Source: a virus (Duplodnaviria; Heunggongvirae; Uroviricota; Caudoviricetes). From it: a stretch of DNA of 64,000 nt. The DNA lies in IMG/VR virus record IMGVR_UViG_2872147552_000001; one strand, written 5' to 3'. Both the position numbers and the translations under genes were made by a program. The notes beneath the pieces are model-generated. The model saw nothing but the letters and a program-made list of their open reading frames with translations. It searched no databases and was not told the DNA's origin. Positions 6,267-56,977 of this stretch are shown here, piece by piece (positions within the stretch are counted from its first letter, which is position 1; every line of letters begins with the position of its first letter).

Positions 6267-7523
6267 CTATCGAGAACCACCAAGAATAACACGGTTTTTG
6301 ACTGGATACCTACGATGTACTGGATAGCCCAATGCGTCTGCACTATGCTCAATGCCACCTGTCTTATCCATATCTCGTGTTCCAGGCTTGTAGATGACTT
6401 TTTCCAGTGAATCAATCAAATGCTTGCACTTCGGATCGATATACAGCCGGATATCTCCAGATGCGGTCATCAGCATTCGGTTAACAGCATTAACACGATC
6501 CGCAATTGGCGGGTGCTTTTTCGAATAATCGACACGTAAGAATCCCTTCTCTTTGAATATGTCGACGTCAGACTCCCCGCGAGCATGTTGGCGATAAGCA
6601 CCTGCCGGATCTGGAAATACCGTTATCTGTGATTTCCAGCGCCAGAAGCGTCTCTCAAGCTCATCACAAACCTCTGCCGTGTTAGAGGAAAAGAGCACCA
6701 ATTCATCAATTGCCCATAGCTCACCATTTGGCTGAGGTTGCAAAATTACTGAAGACATCGGGTCAATGTTGAAGTCCTGCCCTACCCATATAGGCAACCG
6801 AGGGTTGAACTGAAGCGGTTTTACATGCACGTTACGATCGAACGGGTAGTAAACGCGCCCGGACATGTTCTCAAAGCTCGCCAGGTACTCCTGAGCGAAC
6901 GATTTCGGGTCCATATCGTTCTTAGCAGCTTCAATTTCCGCCGTAGGTACAAACGGAGAATCGGCAGTTACAAACTGCCAGCTCTTCCACTGTCCCTTTC
7001 TTTGCAGCTCTACGTTCTGGCCTATAGTCCACAGTTTGTGAAATTCCGAGAAGCCTTTTGGCGTACCAATGATCAGTGCACCGCCGCGTGTCGATGAAAG
7101 AGTAGGTCGTAACACCTTGTACCAGGTGTCAGCCTTCATATCCTGAAATTCATCAAGCACTACAAAATGCAACGCTACGCCGCGCAGAGTGTCAGGCTTA
7201 TCAGCACCTTTGAGGGCGATCTCCGAACCGTTCTTCAACACGATTGTCATCGTGGTGTCGTTCTTTTTCCTAACCCACTTACGAGGCAGAACTTCCTGTA
7301 GATCGTCCCACAAAATCTGGCGAGCCATCTGGTAAGTAGGAGCGACATACCAGACCCTTTGCTTTTTTTCCTTTGCCGCCGCACGAATAATAGTGGAGAT
7401 CGACAACCGGGATTTTCCCCAGCGTCGACCAGCACAAACAACTTTAAATCGATGCGGAGACTGGAAGACTTTCATCTGTCCAGAATGCAGTTGCACAAGA
7501 CTGAGCGAGGACGGGATTGCCAT
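6267..7523 (-). CDS. terminase large subunit
   Basis: Walker A-like CAGRRWGKS near the N-terminus followed by nuclease-type C-terminal half; ATG overlaps TerS stop (TAATG coupling). Confidence 0.8.
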   Translation of the reverse strand: MAIPSSLSLVQLHSGQMKVFQSPHRFKVVCAGRRWGKSRLSISTIIRAAAKEKKQRVWYVAPTYQMARQILWDDLQEVLPRKWVRKKNDTTMTIVLKNGSEIALKGADKPDTLRGVALHFVVLDEFQDMKADTWYKVLRPTLSSTRGGALIIGTPKGFSEFHKLWTIGQNVELQRKGQWKSWQFVTADSPFVPTAEIEAAKNDMDPKSFAQEYLASFENMSGRVYYPFDRNVHVKPLQFNPRLPIWVGQDFNIDPMSSVILQPQPNGELWAIDELVLFSSNTAEVCDELERRFWRWKSQITVFPDPAGAYRQHARGESDVDIFKEKGFLRVDYSKKHPPIADRVNAVNRMLMTASGDIRLYIDPKCKHLIDSLEKVIYKPGTRDMDKTGGIEHSADALGYPVHRRYPVKNRVILGGSR

Positions 7524-8155
7524 TATTCGTCCTCCCCTTTACTTCCATCATCTGTCGCATCAAATTCGCTTAGAGCTTCTTCTTCTAACGTCTCAAGCAA
7601 TTCGTCATCGATGATTTCAGGCTCGTCGTCTTCCTGACGTAATTTCGCCACCTGGGAAGGCGTAAGCTCACCAAATACCAGGTTCGGAATTTCTTCCTCG
7701 TCATTTTCCGCATGATCCATGCCCAATGCTTTGGACGAAACTTCAAAGCATTTTGCAAGGGTATTACTGGCTCTCTGTAAGCTCTTGAGAGAATCCTCAA
7801 TCGCCCCTAAAGGCTTACCCTCACGTTTGGCCGTAGTGACTTCGACCATCACCATCTGCCCCAACGCATACGCCCAGCCGTCATAACGTGTACGACGTTC
7901 TTCTATCTTTTCCGCACGGGCTTTAGCGCGAAGCTCTGCGTCAGATTTAAGAGACTCACGAACCATCTTCCCAACAGAGTCCGCGCCTTTCTCTAATCCT
8001 CGCTTTTTGAAATGTCTGGAGAGTGTTTCACGACGAATGCCGTACTCTTCCTCCAGCTTTGAGAGTGTATATTCGCCTGACGTCCATTTGGCTTCAGCTT
8101 CGGCCCACTCCGCTGGTGTCAGGCGAGTTTTTACCTCGTCTTTTTCGACCGTCAT
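7523..8155 (-). CDS. terminase small subunit (HTH DNA-binding)
   Basis: 210-aa protein with N-terminal HTH-like segment and acidic C-terminal tail, translationally coupled to TerL; GAGGGA RBS. Confidence 0.6.
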   Translation of the reverse strand: MTVEKDEVKTRLTPAEWAEAEAKWTSGEYTLSKLEEEYGIRRETLSRHFKKRGLEKGADSVGKMVRESLKSDAELRAKARAEKIEERRTRYDGWAYALGQMVMVEVTTAKREGKPLGAIEDSLKSLQRASNTLAKCFEVSSKALGMDHAENDEEEIPNLVFGELTPSQVAKLRQEDDEPEIIDDELLETLEEEALSEFDATDDGSKGEDE

Positions 8156-17547: not shown

Positions 17548-17565
17548 GATTAATTCCTTATCGTA

Positions 17566-17601
17566 AATAACAAATTGTTTTCTTGTTGGTGTTAATTATC
17601 G
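17566..17601 (-). promoter_or_regulatory. early promoter/operator module (GATAAT ... AGAAAACAA-N-TTGTTT palindrome)
   Basis: Conserved element about 20-40 nt upstream of the start codon; one of at least 13 copies in the window. Confidence 0.45.
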
Positions 17602-17722
17602 TTGTACGAATAAGGCGTCAAAGTGGAAAGTTGCGGTAGCCGGACGGGAACAGGTGGGTTTGTCGGTTGCCTGGAGGTAAGAGGTTGGTGTTTTTAGCCT
17701 GCGGGAAACAGGATGGTCATTT

Positions 17723-17746
17723 AAGGCCACCAGCATTGGTGGCCTT
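17723..17746. terminator. hairpin AAGGCCACCAGCATTGGTGGCCTT (intergenic stem-loop family)
   Basis: Perfect 9-bp stem; contains the reverse complement of the Chi octamer; no strong T-run. Confidence 0.4.
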
Positions 17747-17751
17747 AATCT

Positions 17752-18052: not shown

Positions 18053-18086
18053 AAACATGTTGTTTTCTTGTTGGTGTAATTATCGC
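18053..18086 (-). promoter_or_regulatory. early promoter/operator module
   Basis: Same GATAAT/AAACAA-N-TTGTTT architecture as at 17566. Confidence 0.45.
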
Positions 18087-18368
18087 AGTGTAGATAAGGC
18101 ATAAAAGAAGTTAATACAGGCTGAATACACAAGAAAGGTTCTGGAAGTTGATAGCCAGGTTTCAAACTAACCTTCGGTTATTAAAAGTCATTTAAGACCA
18201 CCAATGCTGGTGGCCTTAATAATTATCGACCGATTACGCTAAGGATCTTTTCCTCAACTGATTTGTTGTTGCGACTAAACTGCCTTGCGTATCTGATGAC
18301 AGAAGAGGCGTTTTGCTTTCTGACCATCTCGGCTCTTTCCTTCAGGCGTTTCTTGAAATCGCCCATAT

Positions 18369-19848: not shown

Positions 19849-20178
19849 TTACTCGAATACTTCAAGAAACTCCTGAACGTCCCAATGCTGGACGAGGTGA
19901 AGATAGACCTTAGAAATCACGTCATTTTCGCTATCGCATGTGAAGTAGTACTTCTGGCTGCGGTTGTATGTGTCCACACAAAATTCGCTCATATCCATAA
20001 AGTCAGCATCTTCACCCATGTCGCAAATCATCAAAGCAGGTGCGTCATCACGAGTCATCAGCTCAAGCACCCACCGCGAATTGATCAGAGTGGAAGACCA
20101 ACCTTCTAACTCATAAAACTGATCAAACTCTTTTTGAGTTAATTTCTTGATTTGGTTGATGTCGATATTTGCAAACAT
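19849..20178 (-). CDS. hypothetical early protein (acidic)
   Basis: Trimmed to ATG at 20178 with AAGGA RBS; promoter module copy at 20191-20224. Confidence 0.45.
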   Translation of the reverse strand: MFANIDINQIKKLTQKEFDQFYELEGWSSTLINSRWVLELMTRDDAPALMICDMGEDADFMDMSEFCVDTYNRSQKYYFTCDSENDVISKVYLHLVQHWDVQEFLEVFE

Positions 20179-20540
20179 AAAGCAATCCTTAAACAACTTG
20201 TTTTCTTGATGGTGTTATTATCGCAATAACGCACAGGCGAAAAAGGATTTTATTCCGGTGAATGTGGTTTTGGCAGTGAGTTTTCAGGTTCAGTACCGAG
20301 TACACTTTTTACATTATTCTGATTTAGTGGCCGAAGGTGGCTGGTGGGCAGAATAATCATCTCCCCGAAAACCTACTGAAATCGATTGTGACCCGTTGGC
20401 TGTCTGGCACAATTACGCTGTAGCTGGGCATTCAGAGGGAGTCCAACGGTAAGTTAGTCCGCCTGCACGTGAGCGCCTCTCTTCTTCCCGCACATTACAG
20501 GTGGGTAGCCGCAACTCTCCCTCACGCTATACCGGTACGC

Positions 20541-20672
20541 CGCCGTTCCTGAACCGGCATCGAGCCTTTTCCCGAAATCCACACAGGCAACTCGACCGTT
20601 TCCCTGAAAACCTCCAGCCGTTCCCCGAAGGCAACCCAGCCGTTTCTGTAGCGGGATGCAGCTTTTTCCCTG
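20541..20672 (+). repeat. direct-repeat array B (6 copies of GCCGTTCC/CCGTTTCC-type motif)
   Basis: GCCGTTCCTGAACC, CCTTTTCCCGAAATCC, ACCGTTTCCCTGAAAA, GCCGTTCCCCGAAGG, GCCGTTTCTGTAGCG, GCTTTTTCCCTGTATGG within about 130 bp. Confidence 0.55.
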
Positions 20673-21731
20673 TATGGACCGAAGGCTGACCGTAGGGGTG
20701 TTACGGGGGATAAAATCAGGAGTTGAATAAATACGAAAAAGGAGGCGACACCCCTCCTTCCCTCCCCACTTATACATACCTGGCTTCTTCGCTATACATG
20801 TTGTGTTTTATTCGTGTTTTATCTGTCTCAACCTCTCTATGGACGTTAACACTCACTCCTTCCAGAACGTTCTATACGGCGACTAATTCTGTTGGTGAAT
20901 TGGGTGTGTTGTTCTCTCTGTCGGTGTATGTGGTTTCGTTCGTTTTGCGGTGGTTCTTCTATGGGGTGTTCTCGTCGTTTTGGTGATTGTTCTTCTCCGT
21001 GTATGGAGTAATGGCAGGTGGGCGATTCCTTTCGTTGTTGTGTTTGAGTTGTTTGTCTGGAGTGTGAAAGGCTTTTGTAGTTATTCGTGTATTGGGTAAT
21101 GGCGTTTCCCGTGATTGTTCTGTTTCGTGTCTTTTGGGATTGAGAGAAGCCTTGCGGTTACAGGCTTCGTTGGGGGTTCAGTGATTCTGGTGTTTCTTCG
21201 CTGTTTGGGTAATGGCGTGTCGTGGGTATCGCGCGTATGAATGTTTTCGGATTGCCTGTGAAAGTTAGGTTGGTTGTCCGGTAGCCTGGGGAGAAGAGGT
21301 GGGTCTTTTCGGTAGCCTGCCATAAAGAGGTTGGTTGTTTTTGGAAATGGCATATGTGTTATTTAGTTGTTTTGTTATGCCTGAAAATAAGTTGTTTATA
21401 TGGTTATGTAACGCAACGGGAACGATTTTGAGCGTGTGTTTTTGTTGGTAGTGTGTTGGGTCGTCTGTGGTGAAAATTGGACGCTGTGGCGCTGTCTGCT
21501 GCGTAGAATTACGGGTATAAGCAGTGATGTGTGAAAACGTCAATTTTTTAGACCAAATAGGGTGAAAGCGTTGATGTTTCGTTGATCTGTTATTTAGTTG
21601 TTTTCTTGTTTGTATAAACAACTATAACCTATTGATATTTAAGGATGTGATTGCGGGTATGGAAGGGGAGTAGTGGCGATCAACGGATTCTTATAGAAAA
21701 GAATCAAATTGTGACCGCCATTATCAATGTT

Positions 21732-22466
21732 TTACTTAGTTTTGTTTAGCAGAGAGAGAATTTCATCACTAATTTCACTCGCCTGTTTGATAGCCAATGC
21801 AGTTACCTCTTCTATGGTTGGTGACTGTTGATGCTCATGTTTGGTTTCAGTTATGACAATGTGTTCTTCACCTGAATTTGCGCATAGTGCCGCATTGACT
21901 ATAAGGTTTGAGTAAGAATTTAGCAGAGCACTGTTGATAAACGCTTTCACGGTATTACTGTCTGCACCAAATACATCTTTTCTGACCGCTTCAGCCTCAC
22001 AGCGAACCCCTGCAGCAACATCGTGAAGAACATGTATGGCCTTGGAGCTTGTTTGTTCACAGTACTCAATCATTATTGTCGAATTGTTCTGTTCAACAAA
22101 TGATCTGATGCCTGACGATTCACCCATAGCATCGAAGGCAGCGTGACCCGCACTAGTAGAGATATCTTCGTAGAGTTCTTCATCGCTATCTTTTTCTTCA
22201 GGTGTCGAGGTGTCTTCATCGTCGTAATAGATATTGCCTTTAATCAGTGTTTTGGATACTTGATATAAACAATAAGAGACGAGATTTAAGCATTGGATTT
22301 TAGCTGTATTGTCCTTTGTCGCCTCGCTCTTCAGTTCTTTCGCTTCTTCAGTAAGGCTGTTGATAAGACTTTGTATTTTTTCCAACGCGTTAGGTGCACA
22401 CTCCGCGTTGTCCATAAAGAATTTATAACCAGTTCCAGGGATTTCTAAACTTTTCAACTTTTTCAT
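21732..22466 (-). CDS. hypothetical protein (AT-rich, acidic)
   Basis: 244-aa ORF of lower GC content than its neighbours. Confidence 0.4.
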   Translation of the reverse strand: MKKLKSLEIPGTGYKFFMDNAECAPNALEKIQSLINSLTEEAKELKSEATKDNTAKIQCLNLVSYCLYQVSKTLIKGNIYYDDEDTSTPEEKDSDEELYEDISTSAGHAAFDAMGESSGIRSFVEQNNSTIMIEYCEQTSSKAIHVLHDVAAGVRCEAEAVRKDVFGADSNTVKAFINSALLNSYSNLIVNAALCANSGEEHIVITETKHEHQQSPTIEEVTALAIKQASEISDEILSLLNKTK

Positions 22467-22972: not shown

Positions 22973-25006
22973 TTACTTAACCTGGTGGCCAGGTTTAGCA
23001 CCAGCATCCGGGCTTAACAGGAAGATATCTTTCCCGCCGGGGCCAGCAGCCATCACCATGCCTTCAGAGATACCGAAGCGCATTTTACGTGGTGCCAGGT
23101 TAGCCACCATAATGGTGTGACGACCAATCAGTGCCTGTGGATCTGGATAAGCGGAACGGATGCCTGAGAAGACATTACGCTTTTCACCACCGAGATCCAG
23201 CGTCAGGCGAAGCAGTTTGTCAGAACCTTCTACAAACTCTGCGTTTTCAATCAGCGCCACGCGCAGGTCAACTTTGGCGAAGTCGTCAAAGGTGATAGTT
23301 TCCTGAATCGGGTCGTCAGCCAGTGGGCCAGTTACCGGTGCGGCTGTGGCTTTCACTTCTTCTTTGGATGCTTCCACCAGTGCTTCAACCTGCTTCATAT
23401 CGATGCGGTTATACAGTGCCTTGAACGGATTTACTTTATGGCCCAGCAGCGGTTGCTGGATACCATCCCAGGTCAGTTCTGTATTCAGGAATGCTTCTGC
23501 ACGTTCAGTCAGTTTCGGCAGTACCGGCTTCAGGTACGTCATCAGCACGCGGAACAGGTTAATGCCCATAGAGCAAATCGCCTGCAGATCGGCATCGCGA
23601 CCTTCCTGCTTCGCCACCACCCACGGAGCCTGTTCATCGACATAGCGGTTAGCCAGGTCAGCCAATGCCATGATTTCACGGATAGCTTTACCAAATTCGC
23701 GGCTTTCCCATGCTTCGCCAATCACTTCAGCGGCATCAGTAAAGGTTTTGTACAGTTGCGGGTCAGCCAGTTCGCTTGCCAGCACGCCGTCAAAACGCTT
23801 GTTTATAAAGCCTGCATTACGGGAGGCCAGGTTAACCACTTTGTTCACGATATCGGCATTCACGCGCTGAACGAAATCCTCCAGGTTGAGATCGATATCA
23901 TCAATGCGCGAAGAGAGTTTCGCAGTGTAGTAGTAACGCAGGCTGTCGGCGTCAAAATGATTCAGCCAGGTGCTGGCTTTAATAAAGGTGCCGCGAGACT
24001 TGGACATCTTCGCGCCGTTCACCGTCACATAGCCGTGAACAAACAGGTTGGTCGGCTTGCGGAAGTTGCTGCCTTCCAGCATGGCAGGCCAGAACAGGCT
24101 GTGGAAGTAAACAATATCTTTACCGATGAAGTGGTACAGCTCGGCGGTGGAGTCTTTCTTCCAGTATTCATCGAAGCTGGTGGTATCGCCGCGCTTGTCG
24201 CACAGATTCTTGAAGGAACCCATGTAGCCAATCGGCGCGTCCAGCCAGACGTAGAAATATTTGCCCGGCGCGTCCGGAATTTCAAAACCGAAGTAAGGCG
24301 CATCGCGGGAGATATCCCACTGTTGCAGGCCGGATTCAAACCATTCCTGCATTTTGTTCGCCACCTGCTCCTGCAACGCGCCGCTGCGGGTCCATGCCTG
24401 CAACATTTCGCTGAAAGAAGGCAGATCAAAGAAGAAGTGTTCGGAATCACGCATTACCGGGGTAGCGCCAGAAACCACCGATTTCGGCTCGATCAATTCA
24501 GTCGGGCTATATGTTGCGCCGCAGACTTCACAGTTATCGCCGTATTGATCTGGCGCTTTACATTTCGGGCAGGTGCCTTTTACAAAACGATCCGGCAGGA
24601 ACATGCCTTTTTCCGGGTCGTACAACTGAGAGATAGTGCGGTTTTTAATAAAACCGTTCTCTTTCAGGCGAGTATAGATAAGCTCAGACAACTGACGGTT
24701 CTCTTCGCTGTGCGTCGAGTGATAGTTGTCATAGCTGATGTTAAAGCCTGCGAAATCAGTCTGGTGTTCCTGACTCATTTCGCCAATCATCTGCTCCGGT
24801 GTGATACCAAGCTGCTGCGCTTTCAGCATGATCGGCGTACCGTGGGCATCGTCGGCACAGATGAAATTAACCTCGTGGCCGCGCATTCGCTGGTAACGAA
24901 CCCAGACATCAGCCTGGATGTGCTCCAGCATATGGCCGAGGTGGATTGAGCCGTTAGCGTACGGCAGCGCGCACGTCACCAGAATTTTCTTCGCGACTTG
25001 GGTCAT
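22973..25006 (-). CDS. metG: methionyl-tRNA synthetase (chromosomal-type, near-identical to E. coli MetG as recalled)
   Basis: 677-aa product from [26 protein letters not shown] with HIGH and KMSKS motifs and the C-terminal tRNA-binding domain; track ORF extends 43 codons upstream of the true ATG at 25006; own hairpin terminator at 22931-22957. Confidence 0.95.
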
Positions 25007-25163
25007 AGTAGGCATTACTTCTTTGTAGTGAAAAGGGGCTTGATAGTAACAAAATGGCCTTATGTCTGCCATGTGATAACAGCATTTCTCATAAATGATT
25101 AAATGTCGTAGCTGGAGTACACTACAAGGCGACAATTGCGCAAATTAAAATAAAGGAGACGGG

Positions 25164-26264
25164 ATGAGCGAGTCCAAATCGCCGGATGCCCTGAGAGCAA
25201 TGGTAGCCGGTACGCTGGCTAATTTTCAGCACCCAACCCTGAAACACAACCTGACTACGCTTAAAGCGTTACACCATGTTGCGTTGATGGATGACACACT
25301 GCATGTCGAACTAATCATGCCTTTCGTGTGGAATAAGCCTTTTGAAGACCTGAAAGAGCAATGTAGTGGTGATCTGCTCCGTATCACTGGCGCAAAGGCT
25401 ATTGACTGGAAGCTGTCGTACAACATTGCCACGCTTAAGCGCGTCAAAAACCAACCAGGCATTAATGGCGTTAAGAACATTATCGCCGTCAGCTCAGGCA
25501 AGGGCGGCGTGGGTAAATCCTCCACGGCGGTAAACCTGGCACTGGCGTTGGCTGCTGAAGGTGCGAAAGTTGGTATTTTGGATGCCGATATCTATGGTCC
25601 ATCAATTCCAACCATGCTGGGTGCGGAAAACCAACGTCCAACCTCACCTGACGGTACTCACATGGCACCTATCATGTCTCATGGCCTGGCAACCAACTCT
25701 ATTGGTTATCTGGTCACCGACGACAATGCAATGGTGTGGCGTGGACCGATGGCCAGCAAGGCGCTGATGCAGATGTTGCAGGAAACTCTATGGCCTGATC
25801 TGGACTATCTCGTTCTCGATATGCCGCCGGGCACTGGTGATATTCAGTTGACGCTGGCGCAGAACATTCCTGTAACTGGTGCGGTTGTGGTAACTACGCC
25901 GCAAGACATCGCGCTGATCGATGCGAAGAAAGGCATTGTGATGTTCGAAAAAGTCGAAGTGCCGGTACTGGGTATCGTCGAAAACATGAGTGTGCATATT
26001 TGCAGTAACTGCGGTCATCACGAGCCAATTTTTGGCACCGGTGGCGCACAGAAACTGGCCGAGAAATACAACACGCAGTTGTTAGGCCAAATGCCACTTC
26101 ATATCTCTCTTCGTGAAGATCTGGATAACGGAACACCAACCGTTATTAGTCGTCCAGATAGCGAATTTACGGCTATTTATCGTGACCTCGCAGATCGCGT
26201 TGCCGCCCAAATGTATTGGCAAGGTGAAGTAATACCTGGCGAAATCGCATTCCGCGCAGTGTGA
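25164..26264 (+). CDS. apbC: Fe-S cluster carrier ATPase ApbC/Mrp
   Basis: 366-aa product with deviant Walker A SSGKGGVGKSSTAVNLA and CxxC motif (ICSNCGHHEPIFG); divergent from metG exactly as in the enterobacterial chromosome; AAAGGAGA RBS. Confidence 0.95.
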   Translation: MSESKSPDALRAMVAGTLANFQHPTLKHNLTTLKALHHVALMDDTLHVELIMPFVWNKPFEDLKEQCSGDLLRITGAKAIDWKLSYNIATLKRVKNQPGINGVKNIIAVSSGKGGVGKSSTAVNLALALAAEGAKVGILDADIYGPSIPTMLGAENQRPTSPDGTHMAPIMSHGLATNSIGYLVTDDNAMVWRGPMASKALMQMLQETLWPDLDYLVLDMPPGTGDIQLTLAQNIPVTGAVVVTTPQDIALIDAKKGIVMFEKVEVPVLGIVENMSVHICSNCGHHEPIFGTGGAQKLAEKYNTQLLGQMPLHISLREDLDNGTPTVISRPDSEFTAIYRDLADRVAAQMYWQGEVIPGEIAFRAV

Positions 26265-46545: not shown

Positions 46546-46645
46546 GTGTTTTTCCTTTTTTGATGTGTTTAAACAAGTTGTTATCTTATGTGTTTAAACA
46601 AGGCTTACAAATCAAAGATAAGGTGGGGATATACCCCACCATATG

Positions 46646-54477: not shown

Positions 54478-54676
54478 AATCGTTTTTTCAGTAGTTATTG
54501 GCCGATGCTACGATAACTCATTAGGCATACCTTAATCTGCATTTGCCTGTTTTACTTATCCCAGTTATCCACTGGATAGATCCAAATAAGAGATCCCAAG
54601 TAAGATCAAATAGAAGATCCAAAGAGATCCCAGATCGCCTCTAGCCGTTGCGGTTACTGGTCTGAAAGGGTGTTGC

Positions 54677-54779
54677 CATCCACTATGGAGAGCAAAGAAA
54701 CCTCTGTAGAGAGCTGAATAACCGCTATGAAGAGTAAAACAACCACTCTGGAGAGCTGTATATATCCACTGTAGAGAGT
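54677..54779 (+). repeat. iteron array 1 (5 direct repeats, consensus A-A/T-CCACT-A/G-T-A/G-GAGAG-C/T, about 21-22 bp spacing)
   Basis: ATCCACTATGGAGAGC, ACCTCTGTAGAGAGC, AACCGCTATGAAGAGT, AACCACTCTGGAGAGC, ATCCACTGTAGAGAGT. Confidence 0.7.
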
Positions 54780-54890
54780 AGAGCACATTGTCTTTTATGG
54801 ATAACTTAATGACTTAATTCTTCATTAACATACTGATATACATAGATATATTTTAAACTCTACTCTTAGTCATGATTCTTATGTCCTTAA

Positions 54891-54946
54891 ATATCCACAG
54901 AAGAGTAGAGTTACCTGTTCTTGAAATCCTCTGATTTTTATCCACA
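54891..54946 (+). promoter_or_regulatory. DnaA boxes (ATATCCACA 8/9 at 54891-54899; TTATCCACA 9/9 at 54938-54946) in an AT-rich spacer
   Basis: Perfect match to the TTATCCACA consensus, located between iteron arrays 1 and 2 next to a 110-bp AT-rich stretch. Confidence 0.6.
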
Positions 54947-55057
54947 GGCCCGATCCAGTAATTCAGATCACAAAGAGAACCAAAGAGACCCATAAAGACC
55001 CAATAAGATCCCCGCCCACCTCAAACCGTTGTGCCATCTGCCTTCAGACATGATCGA

Positions 55058-55180
55058 TATCCACTATAGAGAGCGAATAATCCACTATAGGGAGCAAAGC
55101 AACCACTATAGAGAGGAGAAAAACCACTATAGACGGTAGGATAACCGCTGTGATGAGTGCTACTATCCACTGTAATCAGC
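55058..55180 (+). repeat. iteron array 2 (6 direct repeats)
   Basis: ATCCACTATAGAGAGC, ATCCACTATAGGGAGC, AACCACTATAGAGAGG, AACCACTATAGACGGT, AACCGCTGTGATGAGT, ATCCACTGTAATCAGC immediately upstream of the rep gene. Confidence 0.7.
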
Positions 55181-55220
55181 AAAGGCCACCAAAGCCGTCG
55201 AATAACAAGAGACATTTGGA

Positions 55221-56276
55221 ATGAGCGAAAACGGCAATAAAAACATAGCGATCGTTGAAGCATTTTCAGAAACAGATAAAAAGACAGGCGAAGTTGTTAC
55301 GTTGGTTCCTAACACTAATAACACTGTTCAGCCTGTTGCTTTGATGCGTCTGGGCCTCTTCGTTCCGACGCTGAAATCGACATCCAGAGGAAGAAAGGGG
55401 CAAATGGTCTCTATGGATGCCTCTGCTGAACTCAAACAGCTGTCTCTGGCAAAAGCCGAAGGGTACGAAGACATAAGGATCTCTGGCCTTCGGCTTGATA
55501 TGGATAACGACTTTAAAACGTGGGTGGGAATAATCCACGCGTTTGCCAAACACAAGGTCGTTGGCGATACTGTCACGTTGCCGTTCGTTGAGTTTGTAAG
55601 GCTGTGTGGCATTCCGACCGCCAGGTCATCAGCGAAGTTACGCAAACGCCTGGACAGTTCGCTAAGCCGTATTGCCACAAATACCATCTCGTTCCGTAGT
55701 AAAGGCTCTGATGAGTTTTACGTAACGCATCTTGTGCAAACGGCAAAATATAGTGTCAAGCACGATACGGTCGAACTGAAAGCAGATCCCAAGATTTTCG
55801 AACTCTACCAGTTCGACAAAAAGGTTCTTCTGCAACTCCGGGCTATAAACGAACTCTCAAGAAAAGAATCCGCTCAGGCGCTTTATACTTTTATTGAAAG
55901 TTTGCCGCCTGATCCGGCACCAATATCACTAGCCCGTTTACGCGCCAGACTTAATCTGACAAGTCGCACTATTACTCAGAATGCGACGGTAAGAAAGGCT
56001 ATGGAACAGCTGCGAGAGATAGGATATCTCGATTACACGGAAGTTAAGCGCGGAAACTCGGTCTACTTCGTCATCCACTATAGGCGGCCAAAGTTACGCC
56101 AGGCACAAATATCAACAAAAATCGATAATGATGAGACGGAATATAGCCTCCCAGATGAGAATCAAGATGACATTATCGACGTTGTGCCTGACGAAAAAGA
56201 AGGCAAAATGGTCATGTTGAGTAAAGAAGAACTGGCGCTTCTCGAAGAGTTGCGCAAGGCAAAGACTCGCAAATAG
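55221..56276 (+). CDS. replication initiator protein (iteron-binding Rep candidate)
   Basis: 351-aa plus-strand ORF flanked on both sides by iteron arrays, DnaA boxes and an AT-rich region; assignment by context. Confidence 0.55.
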
Positions 56277-56278
56277 CC

Positions 56279-56395
56279 CAACCACTGTAGTTAGTAGTAA
56301 GGCTCACTATCCACTGTAGTGAGCCTTACTTATATCTGTAATTCGCTATCCACTATAGTGAGTATCGTTATCTGTTGATAACCACTGTAGGCAGT
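56279..56395 (+). repeat. iteron array 3 (4 direct repeats downstream of rep)
   Basis: AACCACTGTAGTTAGT, ATCCACTGTAGTGAGC, ATCCACTATAGTGAGT, AACCACTGTAGGCAGT. Confidence 0.65.
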
Positions 56396-56494
56396 AGAAT
56401 GCAAATACTGAATTAAATGTTAGTGATCACTAACACTGATGAAACAAGGGCTGCGAGGTTAGTGGTCACTGGGTATCTTGGAAAATTTACTGTC

Positions 56495-56760
56495 TATAGT
56501 GGTTGTTGTCGCCCTCATCTTTGAGCGTATCCACTGTGGCGAGTGGATATCCACTGAAAACAGCAAAGGCTTACTCACCATAGTGTATACCCGCTGGACA
56601 TCTCACTCCAATACTCACCATAGTGGTTGTTTGATGCGAATGAAAGGCTGTCTACTCGCTACAGTGGTTAGCAGATATGTAGGAAGAGAGGACTGCAGAC
56701 CACAGTGGATAATGAGCTGATACGAATGCGGTGAGCTGGCTACTCACCGCAGTGGTTGGT
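56495..56760 (-). repeat. iteron array 4 (about 6 copies, mostly inverted orientation)
   Basis: CTATAGTGGTTG, CACCATAGTG, CACCATAGTGGTTG, CTACAGTGGTT, CCACAGTGGATAAT, CACCGCAGTGGTTGG are reverse complements of the iteron core. Confidence 0.55.
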
Positions 56761-56764
56761 GCTA

Positions 56765-56977
56765 TTAGTGTATTTTCTTCAACAGACCCCAAAGTGTTCC
56801 GGCTTTTGTAGTCAGTTTTCCTGTTTCTGGATCGTACATACGCCATTCACGCCGCTGGTGGACGATATACCCATCTTCACGTTCCAGACGCTCAAGAATG
56901 CCAGGCTGCTTGAAACCCTTAGCGCGCCAGTATCCGCTTGTTTTCTCGATTTCCAGACCTGCCAGTGTTAATGCCAT
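56765..56977 (-). CDS. hypothetical small protein
   Basis: 70-aa ORF. Confidence 0.3.
   Translation of the reverse strand: MALTLAGLEIEKTSGYWRAKGFKQPGILERLEREDGYIVHQRREWRMYDPETGKLTTKAGTLWGLLKKIH

Follow-up and report, generated by a model that had tools for sequence, protein, structure and literature searches.

The stretch of DNA analysed here, 64,000 nt from the virus record IMGVR_UViG_2872147552_000001 (hereafter the window, to whose positions all coordinates refer unless stated otherwise), comes from an SSU5-like phage-plasmid of Escherichia coli and contains about one kilobase in which the plus strand is dominated by G and T. This G+T-rich kilobase forms the center of a non-coding control locus of 1.5 kb (20197-21731), which is present in one copy, conserved among phage-plasmids of many enterobacterial genera, and silent in lysogens. 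According to the arrangement of its motifs, the locus may be a transcription-activated origin of replication for the lytic cycle (oriLyt), separate from the origin used by the plasmid initiator RepA, a reading which we put forward tentatively as the most economical one and to which we give rather less than an even chance.

Extent and non-coding nature of the locus

A preliminary description placed the G+T bias at 20700-21700, and it is indeed present on those exact coordinates (G+T of 0.664), with the run quoted as an example located at 20902-20949. The true core is found at 20880-21480, where the plus strand holds 0.33 G, 0.41 T, 0.14 A, and 0.12 C (G+T of 0.735). The top 600-nt stretch (20890-21489) reaches 0.74, about 7.6 standard deviations from the window mean (0.499, standard deviation 0.032), and the runner-up attains only 0.568, the skewed core being unique in the 64 kb. 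The skew plot that had been proposed as a check gives, for 21001-22000, a GC skew of +0.33 and an AT skew of -0.27, which is the sole strong reversal in the 64 kb. The gene-free gap that harbors the core runs from 20197 to 21731 (about 1.5 kb), longer than first described, and is bordered by the genes 19849..20178 and 21732..22466, both on the minus strand as had been stated.

The open reading frames (ORFs) inside the gap had been judged implausible, and the comparison with other genomes bears this out. The gap is considered non-coding because PGAP places no annotation within it in a 98%-identical plasmid, because annotators differ on the strand of the proposed ORFs, because six-frame stop-to-stop segments show partial translated similarity in all six frames with no ORF that is full-length in all relatives, and because a 2-nt indel lies within the core between 93%-identical relatives.

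Conservation and constraint

Escherichia phage Cyrano, an SSU5-like element that strain LF82 carries as a plasmid prophage, shares 97.4% identity with this region. The latter matches 243 E. coli plasmids, of ~105-120 kb each, and no chromosome, and it can be aligned to Salmonella phage SSU5 and to Klebsiella phage-plasmids at 67-73% identity. The locus is carried by 838 PLSDB plasmids from Klebsiella, Escherichia, Enterobacter, Salmonella, Citrobacter, Cronobacter, and others, with a distribution that covers at least nine enterobacterial genera, and elements from Kluyvera and Buttiauxella, reached via a flanking protein, exhibit the same composition and the same motif order. It is part of the backbone conserved in all SSU5-type phage-plasmids, and the comparison with related genomes that had been called for has revealed a conserved locus.

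In 11 elements from five genera, with an identity of 0.61-0.93 when compared with the window, G+T in the best 500 nt remains at 0.70-0.75, and across relatives both the composition (66-75% G+T) and the length persist at 61-75% identity. The distance across the core, measured between two invariant blocks that flank it, is 742-794 bp in 12 of the 13 genomes, the exception having an insertion. Among 18 close relatives, nucleotide diversity (pi) is 0.0245 in the core, 0.023 in an array of 22-bp repeats, and 0.022 in an array of 31-nt repeats (both described below), compared with 0.02-0.07 (~0.054) at third codon positions and ~0.013 at positions 1+2 of the cleanly orthologous flanking genes. The locus is thus under constraint, with a diversity that amounts to about 40% of the value at neighboring third codon positions.

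Expression and RNA structure

Expression of this region can be read from published RNA-seq of lysogens of LF82, which carry the 97%-identical phage Cyrano (PMC9928086, S1 Table; values in log2(FPKM+5), where FPKM stands for fragments per kilobase per million mapped reads and 2.32 equals zero). CYRAN_103 (window ~21265-21621, minus strand) shows 2.32 in both replicates in lysogeny broth (LB) and does not exceed 4.27 in 10 samples, that is, an FPKM of 0 to ~14, and CYRAN_104 (window ~20373-20777) shows 2.6-4.66. The upstream neighbor CYRAN_102 reaches 5.6-9.2 (~45-590 FPKM), so that the lysogen signal falls from CYRAN_102 to CYRAN_103, where the locus begins. By these counts, lysogens keep the locus silent.

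The locus does not qualify as a structured RNA or as a known RNA family. Rfam yields no matches at gathering thresholds in the whole window and, at E<=1, a sole match to speF that is noise (14.6 bits, E = 0.68), while a tRNA/tmRNA search found none. Single-sequence folds compared with shuffles give z-scores of -1.9, +1.8, and +0.2, neither strand beating its shuffles, and consensus folding of the 11-genome alignment gives merely -1 to -13 kcal/mol per 100 nt. The large z-scores returned by sliding alifold were discarded as artifacts of near-zero shuffle variance, their absolute energies being tiny. The expectation that a minus-strand RNA would be weakly structured holds, with -128 kcal/mol over 781 nt versus -202 for the plus strand.

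Anatomy of the locus

Read along the minus strand, the locus presents two candidate promoters (P_A and P_B), ~750 nt of C+A-rich sequence with GTAATGG and 31-nt units, a polypurine block with a hairpin, an AT tract, and the 22-bp array, and it finally reaches the next gene's promoter (Table 1).

Table 1. Features of the gene-free gap and sites of the dispersed palindrome in the window.
Feature	Position	Strand	Remarks
Promoter/operator cassette of gene 19849..20178	20191..20225	-	Left boundary of the gap
Variable left segment	20236..20520	.	Least conserved part of the gap (0.16-0.6)
About six degenerate 22-bp direct repeats, iteron-like	20541..20712	+	Core GCCGTTTCCCTGAA
Short AT-rich tract between 22-bp array and hairpin	20703..20742	.	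62% A+T; conservation 0.71-0.85
Hairpin and polypurine block	20736..20767	-	GGGGAGGGAAGGAGGGG-GUGUCG-CCUCCUUUUU; terminator scan
G+T-rich core (C+A-rich on minus strand)	20880..21500	+	G+T 0.735; pi 0.0245; no conserved RNA structure
Direct GTAATGG(C) units, TTCTTCTCCGTGTAT-like sequence before each	20985..21351	+	Units at 21008-21015, 21096-21103, 21209-21216; degenerate copy 21344-21351
Three tandem 31-nt units	21248..21340	+	CGGTAGCCTG-N5-AAGAGGTKGGT-nTTTT
AT-rich (76%) block	21359..21397	.	Operator-like palindrome AAATAAGTTGTTT at 21385-21397 and first copy of TTATTTAGTTGTTTT
Candidate sigma70-type promoter P_B	21514..21560	-	A-tract, -35 TTGACG 21543-21538, 17-nt spacer, -10 TTATAC(C) 21520-21514
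Promoter/operator cassette copy P_A	21588..21625	-	TTTATA, caaacaaga, AAACAACTAAATA
CGTTGA/TCAACG boxes, inverted	21566, 21580 / 21679, ~21722	.	Region 21566..21728 is the right boundary; blocks score 0.94-0.95
AAACAA-N-TTGTTT sites	8196, 8221, 17568, 18053, 18803, 19706, 20191, 21385, 22825, 22876, 26814, 31087, 35627, 36356, 46571, 58301

P_A scores 17.1 bits (21588-21615) with the position weight matrix (PWM) of the promoter/operator cassette, for which shuffles yield 0-2 matches above 12 bits per 128 kb. Its layout is that of the promoter of the ribonucleotide reductase (RNR) beta gene at 46571, and its TTGTTTTCTT is invariant in 11 genomes. The A-tract of P_B lies 40 nt downstream of P_A, and transcription from P_B would start near 21508. 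In the same 11 genomes the P_B hexamers are invariant or near-invariant and the spacer is variable, and the pattern TTGACG-17-TTATAC occurs once in the 64 kb versus 0.08 expected. P_A is followed by neither a Shine-Dalgarno sequence nor a start codon, and P_B likewise lacks a start codon.

Within the core, exact GTAATGGC is found eight times in the 64 kb, three of them inside 210 bp. Each genome holds three to six GTAATGG units, on the plus strand only and spaced by 41-142 bp. The possibility that these units are degenerate copies of the promoter cassette was considered and rejected, as the PWM does not recover them. The 31-nt array gives an autocorrelation at lag 31 with z = 4.8, and its units are near-invariant in 11 genomes; the pattern has eight matches versus 0.64 expected, all but two within two triplets. 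The second triplet lies at 17634-17720, in the gap 17548-17751; it comes after the terminator hairpin of the preceding gene, and a near-identical promoter cassette is found 50-120 bp farther downstream. The start of the 31-nt unit, CGGTAGCCTG (21279-21288, 21310-21319, and 17634-17643), presumably bears a candidate likeness to the ops element of RfaH, GGCGGTAGCGTG; these starts are on the plus strand, which is the non-template strand solely for rightward transcription. The palindrome AAATAAGTTGTTT at 21385-21397 is perfect in SSU5-type genomes.

On the left side, autocorrelation in 20520-20700 gives z-scores of 4.7 and 4.1 at lags of 22 and 44, respectively, and the approximately six units have a common core GCCGTTTCCCTG (repeat families D3, D6, and D7). 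They are discernible in SSU5 and Klebsiella too, and PhiR41_1 (L005) is short by exactly one unit. Clusters of 22-bp and GTAATGG repeats appear nowhere else in the 99 kb of Cyrano, being single-copy as expected for a cis site. The polypurine block, of 17-20 nt on the minus strand, overlaps the hairpin and is kept in 13 genomes. According to folds of the individual genomes, the hairpin of SSU5-type genomes uses G.U pairs that are valid only on the minus-strand RNA and has no U-tract. A specific long-range pairing of the polypurine block with the 31-nt repeats was rejected, because shuffles do as well in 11 of the 13 genomes.

The boundaries carry further signals. The cassette of the left-hand gene reads, on the minus strand, TGCGATAAT (an extended -10), then ACACCATCAAGA, and then the palindrome AAACAAGTTGTTT; it scores 40.0 bits with the PWM, the second-highest value, is invariant in four genomes, and recurs in the window as a 28-nt near-copy (18060-18087) and as a 20-nt copy (17575). 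The variable left segment contains a Chi site, GCTGGTGG, at 20339-20346, which is kept in the E. coli and Klebsiella types and not in SSU5. At the right end, a composite inverted repeat (21674-21720) is invariant; its outer arms are TGGCGATCA / TGACCGCCA, to which the E. coli lineage adds an inner stem of 7 bp, GATTCTT/AAGAATC. The repeat directly follows the stop codon of the upstream gene, and here the RNA-seq signal of CYRAN_102 ends without a U-tract. The motif CTTATACC, whose inverted copies flank the core, was discarded as a phage-wide promoter motif (27 matches versus 30 expected).

A palindrome dispersed through the element

The 13-bp palindrome AAACAA-N-TTGTTT is present in 16 copies in the window versus 0.5 expected, and every copy stands just upstream of a minus-strand gene, where it either separates the -10 element from the Shine-Dalgarno sequence or overlies the -35 element. 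In Cyrano it precedes ~17 genes, including terS, parA, the helicase gene, and the gene for RNR-beta. From its sequence and placement, the palindrome looks like the dispersed operator of an undescribed phage-wide regulon, with a logic like that of C1 in phage P1. The motifs of the locus, the palindrome among them, are absent from the searched literature except as unrelated primers.

The locus as a possible origin of lytic replication

The RepA origin of the element is a P1/F-type locus at 54.5-56.8 kb, 33 kb away, with its own iterons CCACTRTAGRGAG and a DnaA box, and for this reason the locus described here is not the RepA plasmid origin. Of 18 matches to the RepA iteron in the window, 17 fall at 54.68-56.67 kb and one, isolated and with two mismatches, at 1826; none lies in 20-22 kb. 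The RepA replicon itself (54550-56770) comprises two iteron clusters (ATCCACTATAGAGAG, 21-bp spacing) upstream of repA, a perfect DnaA box at 54938, AGATCC repeats, and, downstream of repA, an incA-like array with iterons in both orientations. The locus is also dispensable for plasmid maintenance, since a defective 52-kb derivative (L040, CP057440.1 39774-41575) that keeps RepA has an insertion sequence, IS100, in the left part of the gap. In addition, the phage encodes a helicase, a primase, the alpha and epsilon subunits of DNA polymerase III, RNase H, a gp32-like single-stranded DNA-binding protein (SSB), UvsY, and a RecA-like protein. A phage with its own replication proteins therefore needs a site at which to initiate lytic replication, and none has been annotated.

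In this context, we infer that the locus is transcribed in the lytic cycle and functions then as an origin. In the lysogen, it would be held silent through the operator, with the homologue of CYRAN_45 as a putative repressor. After induction, leftward transcription would open or prime the AT-rich, iteron-bearing end, for example by means of a stable purine-rich RNA:DNA hybrid processed by the phage RNase H. Replication proteins of the phage would attach to the repeat arrays, and they could be loaded onto the C+A strand, which as a single strand would be free of structure. The transcript or the displaced C+A strand would be structure-free because A and C cannot pair, and the strand asymmetry may have been selected so that either of them stays unfolded. 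The polypurine end could nucleate the RNA:DNA hybrid. The tandem repeats of the 22-bp array agree with those of iteron-type origins (17-22 bp, in a register of ~22 bp), and the upstream promoter facing the site that characterizes RNA-primed origins is represented by motifs only. Of the explanations offered in the preliminary description, that of a replication-associated region is thus plausible in what concerns the origin-like anatomy (22-bp repeats, AT tract, and single-copy arrays), and fails in its passive form, a mutational skew, on the polymorphism spectrum presented below; the decoy RNA is weakened, and the remnant of a gene is not sustained.

Several observations weigh against an origin. 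No initiator gene is identifiable next to the locus, the eight flanking proteins matching only PHROGs of unknown function and, in Pfam, only DUF5983; an initiator may be encoded elsewhere. DnaA boxes are not enriched in the locus. The 22-bp repeats are degenerate, Tandem Repeats Finder (TRF) makes no call on them, and the AT tract beside them is short and just 62% A+T; richer tracts (76%) occur at 21355-21400 and 21585-21650, away from the array. The -10 elements of P_A and P_B are weak, and a consensus promoter scan reported neither. Only in the E. coli lineage does the hairpin have the form of a canonical intrinsic terminator, and a C+A-rich RNA has no special hybrid stability, which only the short polypurine block would provide. 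The palindrome is also found ahead of parA, and the operator may therefore not be a purely lytic switch. Finally, the RNA-seq counts cover just 21265-21621 and 20373-20777, and the paper is silent on strand-specific counting.

Comparison with known replication systems

Three kinds of well-known systems can be compared with the proposed origin. Ori-lambda has tandem repeats of ~20 bp in helical register beside an AT-rich tract and a palindrome, an arrangement found here as motifs only, and a repressor-controlled promoter that fires toward or through the site and whose repression blocks initiation in the lysogen, as proposed here. In contrast, ori-lambda lies within the initiator gene O and no initiator is identifiable at this locus, whose repeats are more degenerate and whose asymmetric core of 0.6-0.75 kb, GTAATGG units, and 31-nt units have no lambda counterpart.

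RNA-primed origins, such as those of ColE1 (RNA II), the T7 primary origin, the T4 R-loop origins ori(uvsY) and ori(34), and the mitochondrial heavy-strand origin with its conserved sequence blocks (OH/CSB), have a promoter several hundred nt upstream that faces the origin, for which there are candidates here, and an RNA whose purine- or G-rich end can stay hybridized to DNA, which is predicted here. The element also encodes, as noted above, RNase H together with a T4-like accessory set (UvsY, gp32-like SSB, and RecA-like proteins). Unlike the RNA of this locus, which appears to have been selected to have no structure, RNA II needs elaborate folding, and the T4 and T7 origins are under 200 bp.

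P1 is likewise a phage-plasmid, with a RepA-iteron origin and a separate repressor-controlled lytic origin (the C1-controlled promoter P53, repL, and oriL), the latter being what is proposed here, and it also scatters one operator before many genes. However, oriL lies inside the repL coding sequence, with no repL homologue near this locus, and the P1 operator is an asymmetric 17-mer instead of a 13-bp palindrome.

A more specific version, which we consider doubtful, would be an undescribed origin design, repressor-gated and RNA-primed, in which a ~750-nt unfoldable C+A leader would end in a polypurine R-loop beside the iterons, the displaced strand would load helicase, SSB, or recombinase, and the composition itself would be selected.

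Alternative explanations

The main rival reading, to which we assign a modest chance, is that of a lytic-phase untranslated RNA or leader acting via the termination factor Rho, with an oversized Rho utilization (rut) region followed by a hairpin that would serve as a firewall or timing device, or that would titrate Rho. Such a device would stand between a block of accessory genes and the conserved block of small genes and terminase, receiving its input from the operator promoters or from upstream read-through. The genes to the right of the locus are variable and those to its left are conserved, the locus marking the exact border, and the CYRAN_102 signal of 45-590 FPKM falls to 0-14 where the locus starts. 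The hypothetical minus-strand RNA has a C/G ratio of 1.98 over 748 nt (78-nt windows have a median of 2.38 and reach 5.5), and in YC dinucleotides it reaches the window's 95th percentile, so that at the sequence level it agrees with a rut site, which takes 80 nt or more of RNA that is neither translated nor structured and in which C far exceeds G. This RNA is little structured and without ORFs, follows a promoter cassette devoid of Shine-Dalgarno sequence and ATG, and has a hairpin at its end. C-rich, G-poor, unstructured, and untranslated RNA is also the hallmark of known rut sites such as lambda tR1. On the other hand, the RNA-seq drop is already present at most ~110 nt past the upstream stop codon, ahead of the C+A-rich core; rut needs ~80 nt and not 750, the locus being about 10 times longer than necessary; and this reading does not account for the conserved length or for the repeats, whether the 31-nt units, the GTAATGG units with their common orientation, or the 22-bp array present in one copy. 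The proposed origin and a Rho-dependent device are mutually compatible.

It is rather improbable that the locus is a DNA-level array for protein binding without a role in initiation, which could be an enhancer- or silencer-like nucleoprotein site for the adjacent early operon, a second centromere, or a site for packaging (pac), recombination, or resolution. The oriented direct repeats, of which there are four families, and the operator-like palindromes inside the locus are consistent with such an array, and the 31-nt triplet upstream of another cassette (17634-17720) suggests a site for a transcription factor. Nevertheless, ordinary regulatory regions in this genome take up 100-300 bp, and a selected strand asymmetry over 600 bp would remain without explanation. 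Regarding packaging, pac or cos sites lie in or directly upstream of terS, and in this element terS (7523..8155) is 12 kb away with its own upstream gap of 470 bp, which holds two palindromes, the large terminase subunit TerL being of the Terminase_6 type. ParA and the integrase are also encoded elsewhere in the element.

That the locus is a passive by-product (a decayed gene, duplicated promoter cassettes, or strand-biased mutation of a single-stranded plus strand) is very unlikely. Degenerate copies of the promoter cassette in the locus would agree with it, as would the per-site rates of A>G and T>C in the core (0.099 versus 0.027). Against it, C>T does not exceed G>A (0.061 versus 0.081), and the polarized polymorphisms of the core oppose the skew (31 GT->AC versus 16 AC->GT), with an implied mutational equilibrium of ~58% G+T versus the 70-73% observed, all from small counts. 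Plus-strand deamination was consequently rejected as the origin of the skew, as the polymorphism spectrum lacks that signal; since recent mutations erode the skew, selection is favored, with the caution imposed by the small counts. An excess of G<->T substitutions between distant relatives was also considered as proof of selection on composition, and it is not decisive because base abundance accounts for much of it. The idea of a degraded gene or junk, offered in the preliminary description, does not survive the preservation of position, motif order, composition, and length in at least nine genera, the absence of a conserved ORF, and a rate of change lower than that of third codon positions.

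The leading idea of that description, a constitutive long non-coding RNA that sponges an RNA-binding protein with an A/C motif (Hfq/Crc-like or CsrA-like), is very improbable: although the minus strand is C+A-rich and unstructured, holds the single-stranded motif GCCAUUAC three to six times, and recalls CsrB/RsmZ and CrcZ in being non-coding with several copies of a short motif, such a decoy is unlikely because lysogens show an FPKM of 0 in LB and of at most ~14 in the 10 samples, and, unlike those RNAs, the hypothetical transcript has no (ARN)4 runs of the Hfq type (fewer than composition-matched shuffles), no enrichment of GGA (7 versus a mean of 10), no hairpin-presented motifs, and no Rfam match. 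A transcript made only in the lytic cycle remains compatible with the minus-strand promoter and operator elements and the hairpin.

Neighboring genes and variation among relatives

To the right of the locus, positions 22973-26264 contain full-length metG and apbC (mrp), near-identical to the chromosomal genes of E. coli, the metG beside the locus (22973..25135) being a plasmid-borne copy. In the RNA-seq of LF82, expression of CYRAN_99, the homologue of apbC, exceeds that of the prophage background ~9-fold. This right flank is a hot spot of variable accessory genes, and in other genera it holds a GIY-YIG nuclease gene and other genes.

In SSU5-type relatives, the variable left segment contains a 243-nt plus-strand gene (L002 3604-3846; L014 1386-1628; L015 1395-1637), which is absent from the E. 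coli lineage. The variant of Salmonella pN16S089-2 (L014) has an insertion of ~200-330 nt after the first 31-nt unit. From the right-hand part of the locus, a relic of 460-600 bp survives in large Klebsiella plasmids (150-280 kb), as exemplified by a 229-kb K. pneumoniae IncHI1B/FIB plasmid (L008 5850-6470). The relic is near-identical to the version of Klebsiella phage-plasmids and adjoins an IS3-family transposase fragment and a type I restriction-modification system; it is evidence for past recombination between phage-plasmids and large plasmids. The 460-bp copy of the large IncHI1B/FIB plasmids, an IS-flanked relic, was set aside as uninformative.

Significance for SSU5-type phage-plasmids

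The searched literature, papers focused on SSU5 included, holds nothing on this region, on a lytic origin or regulatory circuit of SSU5-type elements, or on the palindrome. Phage-plasmids of the SSU5/pHCM2 type are widespread in clinical Enterobacteriaceae and also bear resistance and accessory genes, and their switch from plasmid to lytic replication is undescribed in that literature; the locus and the operator offer concrete targets for its study. If selection maintains the strand composition of the locus and not its sequence, this would be an unusual case in a phage of a functional nucleic-acid element that is "structure-free".

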